Shown: positions 49,627-63,665 of the stretch, piece by piece
Layout: the number at the start of each line of letters is the position of its first letter
Position numbering within the stretch: position 1 is the stretch's first letter
NCBI RefSeq assembly: GCF_037042905.1
Contig: NC_087245.1
Coordinates: 8,930,001 to 8,994,000, forward strand
Source: Lytechinus pictus
Taxonomy: Eukaryota
Length of the DNA stretch: 64,000 bases
Direction: 5' to 3'
Notes under the pieces: generated by a model
Told to the model about the DNA's origin: nothing
The model's database searches: none
What the model saw: the letters and a program-made list of their open reading frames with translations, nothing else
Made by a program: the position numbers and the translations under genes

Positions 49627-50220
49627 CTACACCGCATCGATGACATGTACTGCCTGTACCTGACTTCTATGATGGTACCCAACGCATGTTTTCACGGTGG
49701 CCTTAAATTCATTTGATCTAACCCAATAAATAACTGGGTTGGCAATCAAATTGGTATTATATGATAAATTTCCGATTCTATACCATGTTGTATTCAATTT
49801 ATTCGATAATCCATAAACACATAGCGGCATCCAAAGAGAGAACGATGTGACATAAATAGCGGCAAATGTTTTCAGCAACTGGCGATTTTCCTTCAAGCGG
49901 AGATCATTTACACCTGCCCCTGTCCGCGTCACACTGGTGTAAAGAAGTGTATAAGAGAGTCCTGTAAGTATGAACAATAAGAGGATACAAATAGATAGCG
50001 GCACTCCTATCCGATTTTCGGAAAGGATCAGCTCTACGTAAAGCGGGAAAAAGCCGGTCATCCAGGCCAGTATGCAGGCAACGATACATCGCGGTGTGGT
50101 GACGAGATTATTGACTCCAAACGGATCAACTTGCACGGTAACGAAGCGATAGATAGCCACAAGAAGAATATTGAGTGTCGAGACAGCTGTACACGAATTC
50201 CATGAAGCGTTGTATAGAGG
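49627..50220 (-). CDS. Rhodopsin-class GPCR paralogue 1, coding exon 2 (TM3-TM7)
   Basis: Acceptor ...ccaaatgcag|CCT, phase 0. Motifs AIYRF (DRY position), TM4 W, FSLWMP and NPVIY; stop TAG at 49627-49629. Confidence 0.92.
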   Translation of the reverse strand, partial: PLYNASWNSCTAVSTLNILLVAIYRFVTVQVDPFGVNNLVTTPRCIVACILAWMTGFFPLYVELILSENRIGVPLSICILLLFILTGLSYTLLYTSVTRTGAGVNDLRLKENRQLLKTFAAIYVTSFSLWMPLCVYGLSNKLNTTWYRIGNLSYNTNLIANPVIYWVRSNEFKATVKTCVGYHHRSQVQAVHVIDAV

Positions 50221-51828
50221 CTGCATTTGGAATTGAAACAAATACAAAAAATTCCATTTACTTATATTTACCTAATTATTCATAACGCGATTTGTGATGT
50301 CAAAATTTATCAAAACAGCTGCATGTGCCAGATCATAATATTTGTGGGTATTTGTTTGTTAAACTCGTAACTTGCTCTTGACGTTTGAACCTTTAGGAAA
50401 TAATGATTTTGACTTTTGAAAGCTTAGCGGTATGAACTAAAATCCAGATCACACTATTGGTCTGCCCAGTCAGGGGGGGGGGGGCAGGGATATGTCCCTT
50501 GCATGGGTTGTGACTCGACAGGGGGGCAGTCTGCCCCCTCTGCCCCCCCCCCCCCCCCGTGTAGGTACGCGAGTGGGTCTGCCTCGTAGTGATTTTTACC
50601 TGATTGCTAAGAAAACATAAAAAGCCTGTAAGCAAGCAGCCAGGGGATCGAATTTTCTCAATTCACTTATTGACCTGCGTCTTACCTCAGTTGACGACAG
50701 GTATGCGTCATTGAGCAAGAAAACATAGACCTGCACTTAGAGGCATTGCAAGAAACTTATATTCAACTGTAAAGCAGGCGCAAAGCCCAAATCAGTCGTA
50801 ATTAGGCGGTGCAAGAAATTTGAGTTGCCATTCAACGCAAATTAATTACATTGTATGCAACTTACGTAGAGGGCAGCAACACACATCAGTGTTGCTATTA
50901 ATGGAGTTTTAGGAGCAGTGAACGAGAACGACGTAGCAGTCCTCTGATCGTTTGAGTCAACGTCGTCGTCTGCCCTTGTTCATTACAATTGCGAATACTT
51001 TAGATTTCACTCGACTTGTACGTGTACGTACATCCACGTGAAACAGCGCGATAACCAGCGGGTCATGATCCGCTGCCCGACCCGGAAGATCAGGCGTACC
51101 ATCGCCTGGCGACCCGGTCGGGTGATGCGAAGGTGCAGCAACTTCCACTATGATTTAGGAGAACCTCAAAATGGATGTGGCGAGGTTCTCGATTCTGATA
51201 GTGGACGTGTGTGAGGACCTGATGCATATGGCAGGCCAAAAAATGACGTCATCTCGTACCAGATCACTATGTGGACGTACATTTCTAAAAGTGCTCAATG
51301 GAAGGTCCACTCGATACGCGCATACAATGTTTTGAAATCGGCCGTGAATAATGCGTGTGAGGAATTTGATACTGGCCCAAAATCACAAATTTTGAGGATA
51401 ACCGGAGGATGGACACGGAGTGAAATACGGGTGTAGAGTAAGTTATTAAGCTATTTATCTTTCTCGTTATATTTTTTTTCTCTATTTTTTACAATAAACC
51501 ATCATTTCATCCCCCATTGTCACTCGGTATATCCGAACTGGTTCACCGTCCCGAAGTTCGGGTAGGTGGAGCGTAGTTTAGCGGTAGTGAAGTGGAGTGG
51601 AGCCTGCACGAACTTCGCCCGAGGTAACTGTACATGTGTCCATAGTGTTGAATTGTCTTCGCACTACTTAATTTCAATTATGTGAATCACGTCTTCACAT
51701 AGTACACTGGGTGAAACCGTGTTCTTTCCAGCAAGTTTAATTTAGAATTTAATTTACATATATATTTTTTGCAAGCTTCATAATAATATCCGAGAAACAT
51801 ATTCTATGTGCTGAAATTTTAGACCTAC

Positions 51829-52095
51829 CCTTGGTTGACTGTCGTACATACCGAGGAGGGAAATAACAGCAGAGGTGAGGTCTATAAGCGCCATGTTGAA
51901 AGTGAAGATGTTATGCTGTTTTCTTAATCTAGGTGATGAGAGGATGAAGAGGAGAATGAGCCCGTTGAGAATGACAGATATGGCAGTCAATGGAGTATTC
52001 ACCATCTCGTAATAGGTATACCCTGATTCAGCAAGCTGATTTTCATTTGGAGTAGGAATGCTTTGCACTTTATCTGTTCCCATATCTGATTCCAT
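51829..52095 (-). CDS. Rhodopsin-class GPCR paralogue 1, coding exon 1 (N-terminus, TM1-TM2)
   Basis: ATG at 52095 (MESDMGTDK...); ILNGLI (N1.50), SPRLRKQHNIFTFNMALIDL (D2.50); donor AGG|gtaggt, phase 0. Spliced product is 286 aa. Confidence 0.9.
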
Positions 52096-52659
52096 TACTG
52101 AATCTAAGTAAAATCGAGATGTCAATGTATTCACGATGACGATACGCTTCTATAGCTCTAACCAATATTGATCAATGAGGTTTTTAATATTACTTTTGAA
52201 GTAGGCGTTCAAATTGTTTTAAAAAGTCGTTCATAGGACTCGTTTTTTCACAATATCTATTTCTGACTTTGAAAAGCTTCGCAATCCTATAGGTGCCAGT
52301 GTTCAGTGCAAAACGTCATTTTACTCAGCGACACGTTTTCTCAGATAAAATGTCACAATGAAATGAAGATCGGGAGAGTATAACCAGTCTCCTAAGTCCG
52401 TTTTAATAAACGTAAGTATCCACAATTCACCGGACATGCTTGTCATCATATAGTCTGGAATTACCTGAACCAGGCACACGAATTTATATCATTGCATTTT
52501 TCTTATTAAAATGAAATGCGTGATTGCAAAAGGGACTAAAATCCACTTTTGACAAAAATAGATTTTTTTTGTATAAATATTTATATCTTAGACCTGGCTA
52601 TCAAATGCAACATATCTCTTTTGAAAAAAAAATGGAAAGTTGGAATTTATTGCAAATTT

Positions 52660-54565: not shown

Positions 54566-55126
54566 TTACACCATTATTGGTCCAATGTTGGTTTTGAATA
54601 AGAGTCTCTTAAGTTCCGTCCTAAAGTCATTTGAGCGCGCCCAGAAAATTACAGGATTGACAATCAAATTAGCGTTTAATGAAAGTACACATATATCTTC
54701 TATCAAATCATTCTCGGAGTAGAAAATTGTCAAAGCTAAGCCTGGGATCCAGAAAGCAACCGATGTTATGTATATGGAGACAAAAGTTATCAGCAAACGG
54801 CGATTCTCTTTCAAACGGCGCACGTCTCGTGAACTCGTCACTCCGCGGTATATAAGTGCATACGAGATCCCTGTCAGAGCAAAGAAGAATAGGATAAAGC
54901 TCGAAACCCACGTACTTCCTTCATCAAAGATGACGAAAATATGAACCAAAAAACCGTTCAACCACGTCAACACACAGGCTAAGATGCATCGAGGTGTAGT
55001 GACAAGATTTCTAATTCCGAAAGGGTCAACCTGAACGGTCACATAGCGGTAGAGGGCCAGTAAGAGAATGTTCAGACTCGCTGAAACTATACTCGATCCC
55101 CAGGTTGTGAGGAGAATACGGGGTAC
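54566..55126 (-). CDS. Rhodopsin-class GPCR paralogue 2, coding exon 2 (TM3-TM7)
   Basis: Acceptor ttttttcaattacag|GTA, phase 0. Reads VPRILLTTWGSSIVSASLNILLLALYRYVTVQVDPFG...AFWIP...NPVIFWARS; stop TAA. Confidence 0.92.
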   Translation of the reverse strand, partial: VPRILLTTWGSSIVSASLNILLLALYRYVTVQVDPFGIRNLVTTPRCILACVLTWLNGFLVHIFVIFDEGSTWVSSFILFFFALTGISYALIYRGVTSSRDVRRLKENRRLLITFVSIYITSVAFWIPGLALTIFYSENDLIEDICVLSLNANLIVNPVIFWARSNDFRTELKRLLFKTNIGPIMV

Positions 55127-55174
55127 CTGTAATTGAAAAAAAATATATAATATACATTAATTTATACATATATA

Positions 55175-57425: not shown

Positions 57426-57931
57426 TTTATGGTGAAACTTTGTTCTTTTTTTGAAACTTTGCACCTTTCAGAGAGGTGCAAAGCTGCACATTTAAAGGTG
57501 CGAAGTTGAACATATTTTTATAAGTGTGTACATGTATCGATATTTCCATTTGGCTATTACAAAGTGTTTAAAGACTTCTCGTTTTCAGTTCTAATAATTA
57601 TGAGGTCTACGCATCGTATATTTTATTATCAAATAGTATTAACCCTTTTCAAATAACATAGAAGAAAAAAAATCAGATAACTATTGATATCCGCATCATC
57701 TGATTGTTTAAATGGAATCTCTATGTCCGTGATAATTACAAAATGTATTTGAAGTATCAATAAGAATAAACCTACATCCAAATTAGAAGATATGGGATTC
57801 CACCGATAAAAACAATCATAATGTTACCTTTTCCTAATATTTAAACAAGTTCACTGTATGTTGAATTGTCTAATAACACTACTAACCTTAAACTATAGGA
57901 TTACATTATGTTACACGCCGTACACACTTAC

Positions 57932-58204
57932 CTTTCTTGTCATGAAAACAGCCAGTGATATCAGCATTACGAAGGCGGAAAATATATCAATAACTGCCAT
58001 ATTAAATGTAAATATGTTATGCTGTTTCCTTAGTCTCGGTGAGCAGACAACTAAAATGATGATAGAACTGTTTAAAAACACTGATGTGGCAGCCAAAAGT
58101 ATATTACATATCTCAATCATGTCAATAATGAGATCTTGTGGTTCCCTTGTAGTCACCGTAGGTTGAGTGAAATTACCCACTTCGTTAGTTGTGGAAGGAA
58201 TCAT
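57932..58204 (-). CDS. Rhodopsin-class GPCR paralogue 2, coding exon 1 (N-terminus, TM1-TM2)
   Basis: MIPSTTNEVGNFTQ...FLNSSII...SPRLRKQHNIFTFNMAVIDI...MTRK; donor AAG|gtaagt, phase 0. Spliced product is 277 aa. Confidence 0.9.
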
Positions 58205-58760
58205 CCTCTATAAAGCGTTTGGATACCTGACAAATAAGCAGTTCGGATTGGATTTAGAATCAAATAATCCCCTATCACGTATAGTCAGTGCTCATACCCC
58301 CCCCCCTTAACGGTTTCTATATCGCATGCGAAGACAGGCTTGTTGGTAGGCCTATGTATTTTATGAGTTTTATTTGATAATAATGAGATCCTTACACACT
58401 TTCAAACACTTTAAATCAATATCAGGTCTCGCCCGATCGCCTAAAATGAGTTACTTCGTGAGTCACTGCTATCTGACTTAGAATTACTGCCACTGTGTTA
58501 AACATTCAACATTAATTAATTAACCTAGAAATGACATGCACTGATATGATTAATAACCTGGCTCATTCATACCCTGTCGATCATGATGCCTAGTGCTTTT
58601 AATATTGTAGCTTTCAATAACTTCTTATATCCATTAGGCTAATATATCGATGCATCAGTCATCTGTTTAGTATCCACTTTACTTGATAATGTTGATTACT
58701 TCGAGAAAATAATTATACCAAGCGTGCCACTCAGTGGGCAATGCAAGGTACCAACAATTA

Positions 58761-60200: not shown

Positions 60201-61150
60201 TAAAAGTAGTGATTGCTTGCAAGATTTCACTTCAATCAAAACATGCACAACATAAACAATATTGTGTATTTTGTTATGTTTGAAATAAATTAATGAAGTG
60301 ATGCATTTCCTTCCATTTTAAAGATAGATTATATGAACTTTAGCATTGGCCGAATCTGGGGTGTTAGTGAGGTACAGGTAAAAAACAACAACAACATGGA
60401 AACATAAGTTATGCACACCTAAGACGTCCATGATGATGAAATTGAAAAAAAAAAACCCACATGTATATTCCTGCCATGTTTATTGTAGACATTCAAATCA
60501 GTTATTAAAATCATCCGATAATACTGACACTACTTTAACTAAACTCAAAGCTGGAAAACAAAAGTGTTGTAACGAAAATAATATTGTAGTTCTGTAAATT
60601 AATCGTACGCCATTATTGCCATGATTATTTCCAACCCTCTTGAAATTCTAGATACTGGTATCAGTTGTTACGATACCAGTATTGATATCTAAGCACTTCA
60701 TACACCTCCCGCAACATGGATACCATGCCTGTTGATTGACCTGCCTGGCCTGTATAATAAAACTGTATCATACGTTCACTACCAAAGTCTCCACCAGTGT
60801 CCTTTGTATTGGATCATCAGTGTCCGGTAATAAACCGTTTGTGATTGATCGCATTAGGAATGGCAAATCTAATTTGTTCCTGGACAGTGTTTAGCCTAAA
60901 AAACATCTAATATTTACCTTAATTAACCAAAGCTCTTTTCTCACTGAATACAAATTTTGTGTTGCAAAAGCTAAGATTGCGTTGTCCTCAAAACACTGCT
61001 TTTATCAAATTAACAAAATTATGTAAATGAATACTTACTCCAACAAAAAATATTCATCTCAATTTATTTTTTTTATTTACAGTTCTAAGGCCTACTTTTC
61101 AGGTAAAAGAGAAATTAATTGATTCTTTCGCACCTAATTAGTCCTCAAGC

Positions 61151-63665
61151 CTATACAACTTCCATGATACTGAATGGCGCCACGCGACTTCCCCAGATAC
61201 ATTGCCTCACTGCAGTCTTGAATACATTTGATCTTAACGTGTAAATTACAGTATTCACAGTCATATTGGAGTTATACAAAGCTACTAAGATATCCATTGT
61301 AGTCATAGCATGCTTTCCGACTAGCCCAGCAAACATATCGGTAGGGAGAAAGAGACGGATGTAAGGTAAATACCTGCGAATGTTTTCAACACACGACGAT
61401 TCTCTCTCAACCTCTCTCCGCGTACTCCCACTCCGCCCTCCATCGATACTTGCCGCGTCAAACCGCGGTAAATTAGCCGATGGTGCCATGAGCCTAATTA
61501 CATCAGGAGGGCTAAAGATATTCGTTCGACCCAACCCATTCGAATTTTTTTAATTTGATATTGCTGATTGACAAAAGTGTATGAATATGATTCAAAATCT
61601 AACACTGATTCTAGAAATGGTAACTACTGAACTTCCTTTGCCCAAATTGGGAAGATATATCAATGATTTGGAACTATTTTTTGACTGGCGGAAGAATTGG
61701 GGCTTTTTTACTGTTTCAGTTGATGAATTTGATCCCATCATAGTTATCTTCATAAATGGCGATTTATTTTTAAAATGAGCTGGCTACGATACCCTTCTCT
61801 GGTCAGATATGGAATGTCAGATATATATCCTATCTAAAGGTAGTAAACATTCGACCCTCTAATTTCACATTTATTTTTTATGAATTTTTCTTAAGTGCCA
61901 TTTTAACACACAAGTCTATGGGGAATGTTTTACGCGCGTGAGACCTATAGGTAATACAGGCGAGTTCCCTATAGTGGATGGAATACCTGCCCAAACTCCT
62001 CAGTAGCAAACAATTTCTAACTGATATCATCATGTTTAGTCATCAAGTGGTGCAAAAAATGGATTTAATGGCTTAGCAAGGCTATATATCAGGTAAAGTT
62101 AGTAGGTATGTGTATGTAAGCCTAGGAATGCATATAGACTGGCCAATGTGAGTCTAGGCCTCTTTATGTTTTGATTCATCATTGGTTTGTGCTAGTGTAT
62201 GATCACCTACTTAATGTTAGAAAGACCTTTACAAATTGCTCATGTTAAAATTGTTCTTTGGAATGGGGTAGAGAGGAAATAGAACTTTGTGAACTTTACT
62301 GAAGAGAACTAGAGTGGTACCTTCAAGAAGGTATTTAGAAAAAGGCACATAGTAAGGTAAGGTATATAATAGTGCTCAACTAAGGAGGGAGGGGGGGTGG
62401 CTGTGTGCTCCAATCTTATTCTAGCCCCCCCCCCTCTTTATAAGCCATGCCATCTATAAAATTATCTTTCTTTCTTTCTTTCTCTCTCTCTCTTTCTCTC
62501 TCTCTTTCTATCTATTTATGTATCTCTTCCTTCTTACATCTGATAGGCAATAGCCCTAGGAAGATTTTGATACAATAGGTCAAGTTTAAATGTACTAAAG
62601 TAATATGTTCTCATTCTTTTATTGTTTCCTCATTCAATCTCATGTATATCTGGTAATTATGTTTGGGGGCAGTTCTGGTATCCTGATATCTACACAAAAT
62701 TTACATACACCTTTATATTACAAGGAGGGGCCTATATATATTGTCATTGCATTCACTCATTGGGCTATATGCAGGTAGGATATGTAGACATCCATATAGT
62801 GAATATAACATGTATGAGTAACACATTAAAATGGGTCATTGCATAGAAAATAGGCATTTTCAATGCATTTCTTTGTGCTAGTGTGAGTGTACAGATATAA
62901 AAGAATAGCAAAGTAGCTATTAAAAAAAATAAAATTCATAGGTCATATAATAAAGGTGCCATGAGCCTAATTACATCAGGAGGGCTAAAGATATTTGTTC
63001 GACCCAACCCATTCGAATTTTTTAAATTTGATATTGCTGATTGACAAAAGTGTATGAATATGATTCAAAATCTAACACTGATTCTAGAAATGGTAACTAC
63101 TGAACTTCCTTTGCCCAAATTGGGAAGATATATCAATGATTTGGAACTATTTTTTGACTGGCGGAAGAATTGGGGCTATTTTACTGTTTCAGTTGATGAA
63201 TGTGATCCCATCATAGTTATCTTCATAAATGGCGATTTATTTTTAAAATGAGCTGGCTACGATACCCTTCTCTGGTCAGATATGGAATGTCAGATATATA
63301 TCCTATCCAAAGGTAGTAAACATTCGACCCTCTAATTTCACATTTATGCCATTTTAACACACAAGTCTATGGGGAATGTTTTACGCGCGTGAGACCCGAT
63401 AGCAGATTCCCGTGGACACAAAAACTACAATGTTCGCAATACCTATATGTATTCCTATGCCATTCGCTACAAACTCCATGGCAGGAAAAGAGCCGACTAC
63501 CCATGCCATAAAACAAGCGAAGATATATCGAGGTGTTGTTACGATATTCTTGACTCCAAACGGATCGACCTGAACCGTCACAAAGCGGTAGATGGCCACA
63601 AGTAGAATATTGAGACCGGATATAACTGTGCAACAGCTCCAAATCGTGAAGTACATGTTTCTTAC
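61151..63665 (-). pseudogene. Rhodopsin-class GPCR paralogue 3, exon 2, disrupted
   Basis: Acceptor tttttcattgcag|GTA at 63665. Reads VRNMYF...AIYRFVTVQVDPFG...STGICYR, then the insertion, then LIYRGLTRQ...LRENRRVLKTFAGIYLTSVSFSLPICLLG-TAG (61321-61323). TM7 (NTVIYTLRSNVFK) is in another frame. Exon 1 would lie beyond the window. Confidence 0.9.
61482..63396. mobile_element. Non-autonomous composite-like DNA transposon with long terminal direct repeats (KolobokP-like)
   Basis: Direct repeats 61482-61945 (464 bp) and 62955-63396 (442 bp). Each has an imperfect TIR, ggtgccatgagcctaa vs (rc) ggtctcacgcgcgtaa. 1009-bp core; TSD cgat (61478-61481, 63397-63400); inner junctions tata / taaa. Confidence 0.8.

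Follow-up and report, generated by a model that had tools for sequence, protein, structure and literature searches.

In Lytechinus pictus, an exon of a rhodopsin-like GPCR gene is interrupted by two long direct repeats enclosing a core, and the locus raises the question of what kind of element was inserted, where its core came from and how its two end repeats are kept alike. The window, i.e., the whole stretch of 64,000 nucleotides that was analysed, contains the following features at this site:

61151..61477, minus strand: 3' part of the interrupted GPCR exon, a probable pseudogene aside from the insertion
61478..61481, no strand: left target-site duplication (TSD) CGAT, 4 bp, read directly from the sequence; the empty site of a related organism has just one such unit
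61482..61945, minus strand: first long terminal direct repeat (LTDR), 464 bp, delimited by sequence and by its match to the published N1 repeat
61482-61497 and 61930-61945: imperfect 16-bp TIRs of the first LTDR
61946..62954, minus strand: internal region (INT), non-coding, 1009 bp, one N1-type unit whose two ends are homologous to those of the coding family's INT
62955..63396, minus strand: second LTDR, 442 bp, carrying a 22-bp deletion
63397..63400, no strand: right TSD CGAT, 4 bp
63401..63665, minus strand: 5' part of the interrupted rhodopsin-like GPCR exon, starting after the splice acceptor and aligning with two paralogous exons

The whole element (LTDR-INT-LTDR) is a monomer of 1,915 bp. 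Its layout, described in the initial annotation as CGAT, 464 bp, 1009 bp, 442 bp and CGAT, was reproduced exactly with outer coordinates 61478-63400, and the comparison of LTDR 1 with LTDR 2 again gave 5 substitutions and one 22-bp gap. The GGT...ACC ends of the LTDRs and the 11/16 TIR matches were both measured again and returned the same values. The ends are GG..CC, in keeping with the absence of TG..CA ends reported earlier, and no stop-to-stop frame longer than 80 aa lies wholly within the element, which agrees with the remark that no ORF is recognisable. The core of the window copy has TATA at its start and TAAA at its end, the latter being a one-base variant of the family's TATA. Within the core, G-rich/C-rich arms of 14 bp form an inverted repeat around a 20-base loop (62389-62436), directly before a CT-rich tract. 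The 22-bp deletion of the second LTDR sits between 63346 and 63347; its pattern had one match in the genome, the window copy itself, and the deletion was rejected as a subfamily mark on account of this single match. When the element and one CGAT are removed, the GPCR exon frame is continuous across the site, and the coding context does fix the boundaries as had been proposed.

An empty site was recovered from run X4 (DNA of a related organism), in which a contig covering 60989-61478 resumes at 63399 with one letter between, so that a single 4-bp unit is present and the whole element is absent. The X4 reads cover the repeat and the core deeply, and the KolobokP family is therefore present in that second organism too. 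Another X4 contig joins 61948 to 62954 in the order repeat end, TATA, repeat start, at a depth of 108; as its short side has only 22 letters, no conclusion is drawn from it. Among the matches listed for runs X1, X5 and X12, no contig spans the insertion site. Head-to-tail repeat joints, the trace expected of repeat circles, had 0 exact matches in the assembly.

Regarding the interrupted gene, the minus strand of the window carries three rhodopsin-like GPCR paralogues in tandem, to one of which the exon belongs. The exons seen of the other two, 57911-58207 with 54569-55156 and 51781-52149 with 49630-50271, both on the minus strand, have open frames. PF00001 matches, all below the curated cut-off, were obtained for one paralogous exon and two first exons, and the 63401..63665 piece alone had no Pfam match. 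The restored frame of the interrupted copy ends at an in-frame stop (61321-61323) that is separate from the insertion, its last helix lies in a different frame, and its NPxxY motif reads NTVIY, features which point to a probable pseudogene apart from the insertion. An assembly error is an unlikely source of the stop and frame lesion because run X1 has the same stretch gap-free (60912-61441, 3 differences, 0 gaps; X1 is perhaps not independent of the assembly). The insertion, a further member of a numerous and published family, lies in a gene that is defective in any case, and is itself of little weight.

The element is almost certainly a monomer of the non-autonomous family KolobokP-N1_LyPi, whose published orientation corresponds to the minus strand of the window. 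In a line-by-line comparison by eye with the reverse complement, 461/464 bases of the window repeat were the same as in KolobokP-N1_LyPi-LTDR, and the first 210 bases of the core showed 2 differences from N1-I and more from N2-I, also by eye. The non-autonomous KolobokP derivative suggested in the initial annotation can accordingly be named. Table S1 of Kojima & Bao 2022 (Mob DNA 13:24; PMC9587614; Data S1/S2) has four Lytechinus pictus families: KolobokP-1_LyPi (4,984 bp), N1_LyPi (3,486 bp, repeat 464/465, TIR 12, TSD 4, 400 repeats, 3 INT), N2_LyPi (1,904 bp, 313 repeats, 156 INT) and N2BDR. KolobokP-N2_LyPi resembles the window copy in architecture, in its size of 1,904 bp and in its homologous repeat and core; by eye, its repeat has 3 differences from the window within the first 70 bases, and its core differs early at several places where N1 agrees with the window. 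With KolobokP-N1_LyPi, the window copy shares the 464-bp repeat, the N1 internal unit, the 4-bp TSD and TATA at the core ends, as well as the occurrence of solo repeats, multimers and INT-INT joints among the family's copies. The difference is in length, 3,486 bp for the published full-length N1 and 1,915 bp for the window copy. The published N1 INT (2,557 bp) can be read as a pair of ~1-kb units that meet at one TATA, the first with a nested insertion of ~540 bp, and the window core matches one unit. Such a dimeric INT accounts both for the difference in size and for an INT copy number of only 3, and the published N1 consensus should shrink to the monomer of ~1.93 kb, the common form. Locus L040 (C3:68.97 Mb) has a layout like the published N1-I; its insertion, related and 583 bp long, occupies a TTAA site and has TIRs of its own.

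The genome was scanned with profiles PF05551 (106 matches among 112 candidates) and PF20700 (114 matches), and 11 loci (L061-L071) were inspected. The nearest coding relative in this assembly, L070 (G000:C7:10448292-10453248), is a copy of KolobokP-1_LyPi of 4,957 bp with the TSD TTCT and an INT of 4,026 bp. It resembles the window copy in its LTDRs (91% alike), TIR pattern, core ends and 4-bp TSD. Its INT bears a His-Me nuclease frame and, convergent to it, a transposase that a frameshift divides between two frames, whereas the window copy has lost both genes. By eye, the L070 His-Me protein differs by 3 residues from the published KolobokP_1_LyPi stretch; acidic motifs and CxxH were located by pattern in the coding relatives. 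No second copy of L070 was found among the 36 of 203 candidates that were scored. In the sister family represented by L065 and L067, the repeats are 82% like those of the window, with different tips; the transposase frame is open over 696 aa (PF20700, E 4e-49), and the His-Me frame covers 146 aa (PF05551, E 3e-11). The longer copies that the initial annotation had envisaged were thus found in two families sharing the repeat, and both show transposase and His-Me frames instead of gag, RT, integrase or a tyrosine recombinase.

Alignment to L070 also bears on the origin of the core. The first 250 bases align with the L070 INT end over 158/206 columns (score 66, shuffle maximum -3) and the last 450 bases over 291/380 columns (score 211, shuffle maximum 20); the middle (250-460), compared with one stretch of the L070 INT, scored -19 against a shuffle maximum of -11. 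Judged from these alignments, the core is a deletion derivative of the coding element with a diverged or replaced middle. It is not host DNA, since its ends align with the coding INT ends. The initial annotation had left two origins for the core, and only the deletion remnant stood; captured host DNA was rejected on the grounds that the core is multicopy and family-bound and has ends homologous to the coding INT ends. The genome search with the core gave multiple copies between KolobokP repeats.

Other coding loci varied in type and organization. L065 is an array at G000:C8:21.258-21.297 Mb and L067 a monomer at C17:13.474-13.479 Mb. Head-to-tail arrays of this coding family, with a period of ~4,461 bp, hold 83/106 of the His-Me matches; within L065, adjacent units show 100% identity over 2,139 bp, and the 696-aa transposase frame is retained in most of them. 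Arrays of the L065 type also occur on contigs C109, C157, C174, C200, C214, C219, C273 and C361, and the unplaced contigs with such units may be redundant pieces of one array. L066 (G000:C5:35.936-35.969 Mb) is a second array, with 8 units of a period of ~4,349 bp and a 723-aa transposase frame with a convergent His-Me frame, and has no match to the window's repeat. L061-L064 (C8:3.88, C16:27.43, C6:26.78 and C7:10.44 Mb) represent a third type with His-Me and transposase, while L068 and L069 (C5:13.26 and 13.33 Mb) have His-Me frames with no long transposase frame nearby. L071 (C14:19.68 Mb) contains His-Me fragments and a 216-bp tandem repeat, along with a frame that we take to resemble a piece of a piggyBac-type transposase. 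Related His-Me or transposase frames are thus present at L061-L064, L066, L068, L069 and L071, and none of these loci has a full-length match to the window's repeat. The L065/L067 family, 81% alike to L070, falls outside the four L. pictus families given in Table S1 of PMC9587614.

The 811.7-Mb assembly containing the window was searched for further copies. The repeat gave 2,754 first-look candidates, of which 40 were scored, all 98-100% alike, and the core gave 1,815, of which 40 were likewise scored. A 23-base repeat-end motif (<=1 mismatch) had 1,138 genome matches compared to 0 for the reversed control pattern, and a core-repeat junction motif (<=2 mismatches) had 578 compared to 0, both counts taking in sister subfamilies as well; among the 100 junction matches listed, many lie in arrays. 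Arrays of the non-autonomous unit were observed at C2:46.17-46.23 Mb, C7:31.70-31.72 Mb, C9:14.31-14.35 Mb and C2:67.63-67.65 Mb, with mixed spacings of ~1.46 kb (repeat-core) and ~2.45 kb (repeat-core-core); the array at C2:67.6 has a period of 6.7 kb. Sixty loci were reduced to 45 by dropping 8 duplicates and 7 pieces of the C9 array. These 45 non-redundant, non-array loci comprise 21 solo repeats, 14 monomers (1,904-1,952 bp) and 10 partial or compound copies, so that both the solo repeats and the arrays foreseen earlier exist, and the repeat-core-repeat unit is present at numerous loci. INT-INT joints, in which the two cores meet at a single TATA, occur at L040, L046, L048 and in the C9 array (C9:14.31-14.35 Mb), and the cores of the monomers start with TATA in 12/14 cases and end with it in 12/14; the INT of another KolobokP family also begins and ends with TATA (PMC9587614). 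At L050 (C6:7.35 Mb), repeats of two KolobokP families, 76-87% and 91-95% like the window's, are nested or abutting.

A perfect 4-bp TSD flanks 17/21 solo repeats and 10/14 monomers (27/35 together). The 27 duplications represent 23 different 4-mers, none of them TTAA, with an apparent weak lean towards a pyrimidine in the first position (21/27) and a purine in the last (19/27). CGAT had been regarded as an atypical target, a view rejected by this table and by the statement in PMC9587614 that KolobokP has no strong target preference. The expectation of TTAA targeting, also raised in the initial annotation, holds for canonical Kolobok and fails for KolobokP, both in that source and here (0/27).

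When compared to known systems, the window's family agrees with KolobokP in the following features. KolobokP direct repeats are ~450 or 660 bp long, and the window has 464 and 442 bp around 1009 bp; their TIRs are 11-18 bp with 5'-RR..YY-3' ends, compared to GG..CC and 11/16 matches here; and their TSDs of 3-5 bp show no strong specificity, as in the 27/35 perfect 4-bp duplications. Solo repeats, multimers and INT-INT joints are all seen, and a DDD/E transposase with a convergent His-Me nuclease is encoded by the relatives L070, L065 and L067, the window copy being non-coding. Canonical Kolobok elements (Kol0, KolobokE, KolobokH) share the RR..YY ends and the 4-bp TSD; in contrast, they have no long direct repeats and use a strict TTAA target, which is absent from KolobokP (PMC9587614) and from the window's family. 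The likeness to a bacterial composite transposon, drawn in the initial annotation, holds in form: as in the IS26 pseudo-compound type, two direct-repeat modules with ends of their own flank a passenger and move alone or together. It does not extend further, since the KolobokP repeats are non-coding, the transposase gene is central, and the passenger is the element's own core and not captured DNA.

Several traits of the family, namely direct repeats, solos with TSD, arrays and sister repeats closer than non-sisters, are those of LTR elements and would suit a TRIM-like small non-autonomous retroelement moved by reverse transcription. We consider this origin extremely improbable, as the ends are GG..CC with TIRs and not TG..CA, and the longer elements with the shared repeat (L065, L070) carry a PF20700 transposase and a PF05551 nuclease where an LTR element would have RT and integrase partners. 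Inspection by eye of the frames of at least 100-120 aa in those elements revealed no RT, gag or integrase, the INT-INT joints with one TATA fit repeat excision, and the match to a published KolobokP family refutes the reading in practice. An equally negligible probability is given to an ad hoc composite, in which 1 kb of host DNA was caught between two nearby solo insertions, or which arose by local duplication. Solo repeats are indeed common and mobile-looking (21/45 loci); however, copies of this core are enclosed by repeats at numerous loci whose TSDs differ, 578 core-repeat junctions occur genome-wide, the core ends are homologous to those of the coding element's INT, and the empty site of the related organism lacks the whole unit.

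As a history of the window copy, we propose that a coding element like KolobokP-1 lost ~3 kb of its INT while keeping the two repeats and the core ends. A KolobokP DDD/E transposase supplied by another locus would then have recognised the two outer TIRs and mobilised the unit in trans, and the whole unit would have been inserted into the GPCR exon through a 4-bp staggered cut, giving the CGAT duplication. After insertion, the 5 substitutions between the repeats and the private 22-bp deletion would have accumulated. As each repeat has both TIRs, the same enzyme may also move or excise a single repeat, with solo repeats and INT-INT joints as products, and recombination between repeats may yield solo repeats and arrays. 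Of the coding relatives, L070, the nearest, has a frameshifted transposase, and the open-frame L065 and L067 have repeats only 82% alike, with different tips, so neither family stands out as the source of the enzyme that moved the window copy.

How the two repeats stay alike was examined in 14 KolobokP monomers, a small sample picked by likeness to the window. Sister repeats differ at an average of 4.8 sites compared to 10.0 for non-sisters, and 0/20,000 permutations were as low. Left-left, right-right and left-right comparisons all averaged 10.0, by which separate left and right repeat lineages were rejected. With runs and tips masked, 418/464 columns entered the allele count: 27 non-consensus alleles are common to both sisters, distributed over 10/14 monomers, compared to 0.23 expected and a maximum of 2 in 50,000 random pairings, and 28 alleles per side are unshared. 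Five of the 27 recur at other loci of a 49-repeat sample, and shared tracts reach 337 bp. In the whole genome, three two-allele haplotypes are confined to the sister pair of the element concerned; a fourth was found in one sister only, the other having an additional change inside the pattern, and 0/4 of the tested haplotypes occurred at another locus. Private core divergence is 0.98 per 100 sites, against a total repeat divergence of 0.94 and an unshared part of 0.48; per element, core and repeat divergence showed no correlation (Spearman ~0.1, n = 14). The window's own copy has 0 shared and 4 unshared alleles, and 4/14 monomers have no shared allele. In the C9 array, the repeats are on average 3.0 sites from each other and 15.2 from the family consensus (5 distinct sequences).

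These data indicate that sister repeats are re-homogenised after they have started to diverge, and that roughly one in two repeat mutations passed from sister to sister by copying, or both repeats were remade from one. With about half of the mutations shared, each element would have passed through about one near-whole-repeat event in its lifetime. Since sisters differ at 4.8 and non-sisters at 10.0 sites, recombination of a circle into an unrelated solo repeat (route b1 of PMC9587614) is disfavoured as the main source of monomers. Re-homogenisation is what the untested unequal-crossover model predicts, a model that awaits experimental confirmation according to a 2026 review (PMC13565253), and ordinary gene conversion would fit equally well. 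The sister-repeat pattern was not found in print among the papers searched; the main-text passages of PMC9587614 examined on identity and on gene conversion make no comparison between sister repeats.

We lean slightly towards in-place homogenisation independent of the element, by ordinary gene conversion or unequal crossover (monomer-dimer-monomer). The excess of shared alleles in tracts of up to 337 bp is consistent with it, as are the haplotypes confined to the sisters of one element and a core divergence equal to the total repeat divergence and twice its unshared part; gene conversion between sister LTRs has been reported in plants (PMC7251063). Against it, the window copy has no shared allele, and the rate may not be the ordinary one for direct repeats of like length and spacing. 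The same data would also follow if homogenisation in place were driven by the element's His-Me nuclease cutting in the repeat, i.e., by induced unequal crossover (PMC9587614). The near parity of 27 shared and 28 unshared alleles per side, the occurrence of very long arrays and the closeness of the C9 array repeats to each other speak for this possibility, which we nevertheless hold to be doubtful: a cleavage site is only postulated, the His-Me nuclease has never been assayed according to the review (PMC13565253), and the sample consists of only 14 monomers selected by likeness to the window. The repeats might instead be reset at transposition. IS26 moves by a replicative step, and a similar step inserting a circle of one repeat plus core would duplicate the repeat, so that direct orientation, TSD, long shared tracts and a lasting composite form would all result at once; the equal clock of core and repeat agrees with this, and the IS26 parallel was drawn in PMC9587614. 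We judge such a reset unlikely, since it predicts the haplotype of a donor or sibling copy and none of the four was found at another locus, though one assembly may miss the donor, and since 4/14 monomers have no shared alleles. Ordinary homogenisation in place remains our preferred reading, and it is only tentatively that we consider the element itself to keep its two end repeats alike, whether through nuclease-induced repair or through re-duplication at transposition. If true, this would be the first sequence evidence on the means by which a eukaryotic composite-like transposon preserves its structure.

The way in which KolobokP preserves its composite structure is a question on which the sister-repeat result bears; the result also implies that the divergence of a repeat pair is no insertion clock in KolobokP. 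A further coding KolobokP family (L065, L067), whose frames are open, forms long arrays in this genome and offers a ready source for the biochemistry of the nuclease.
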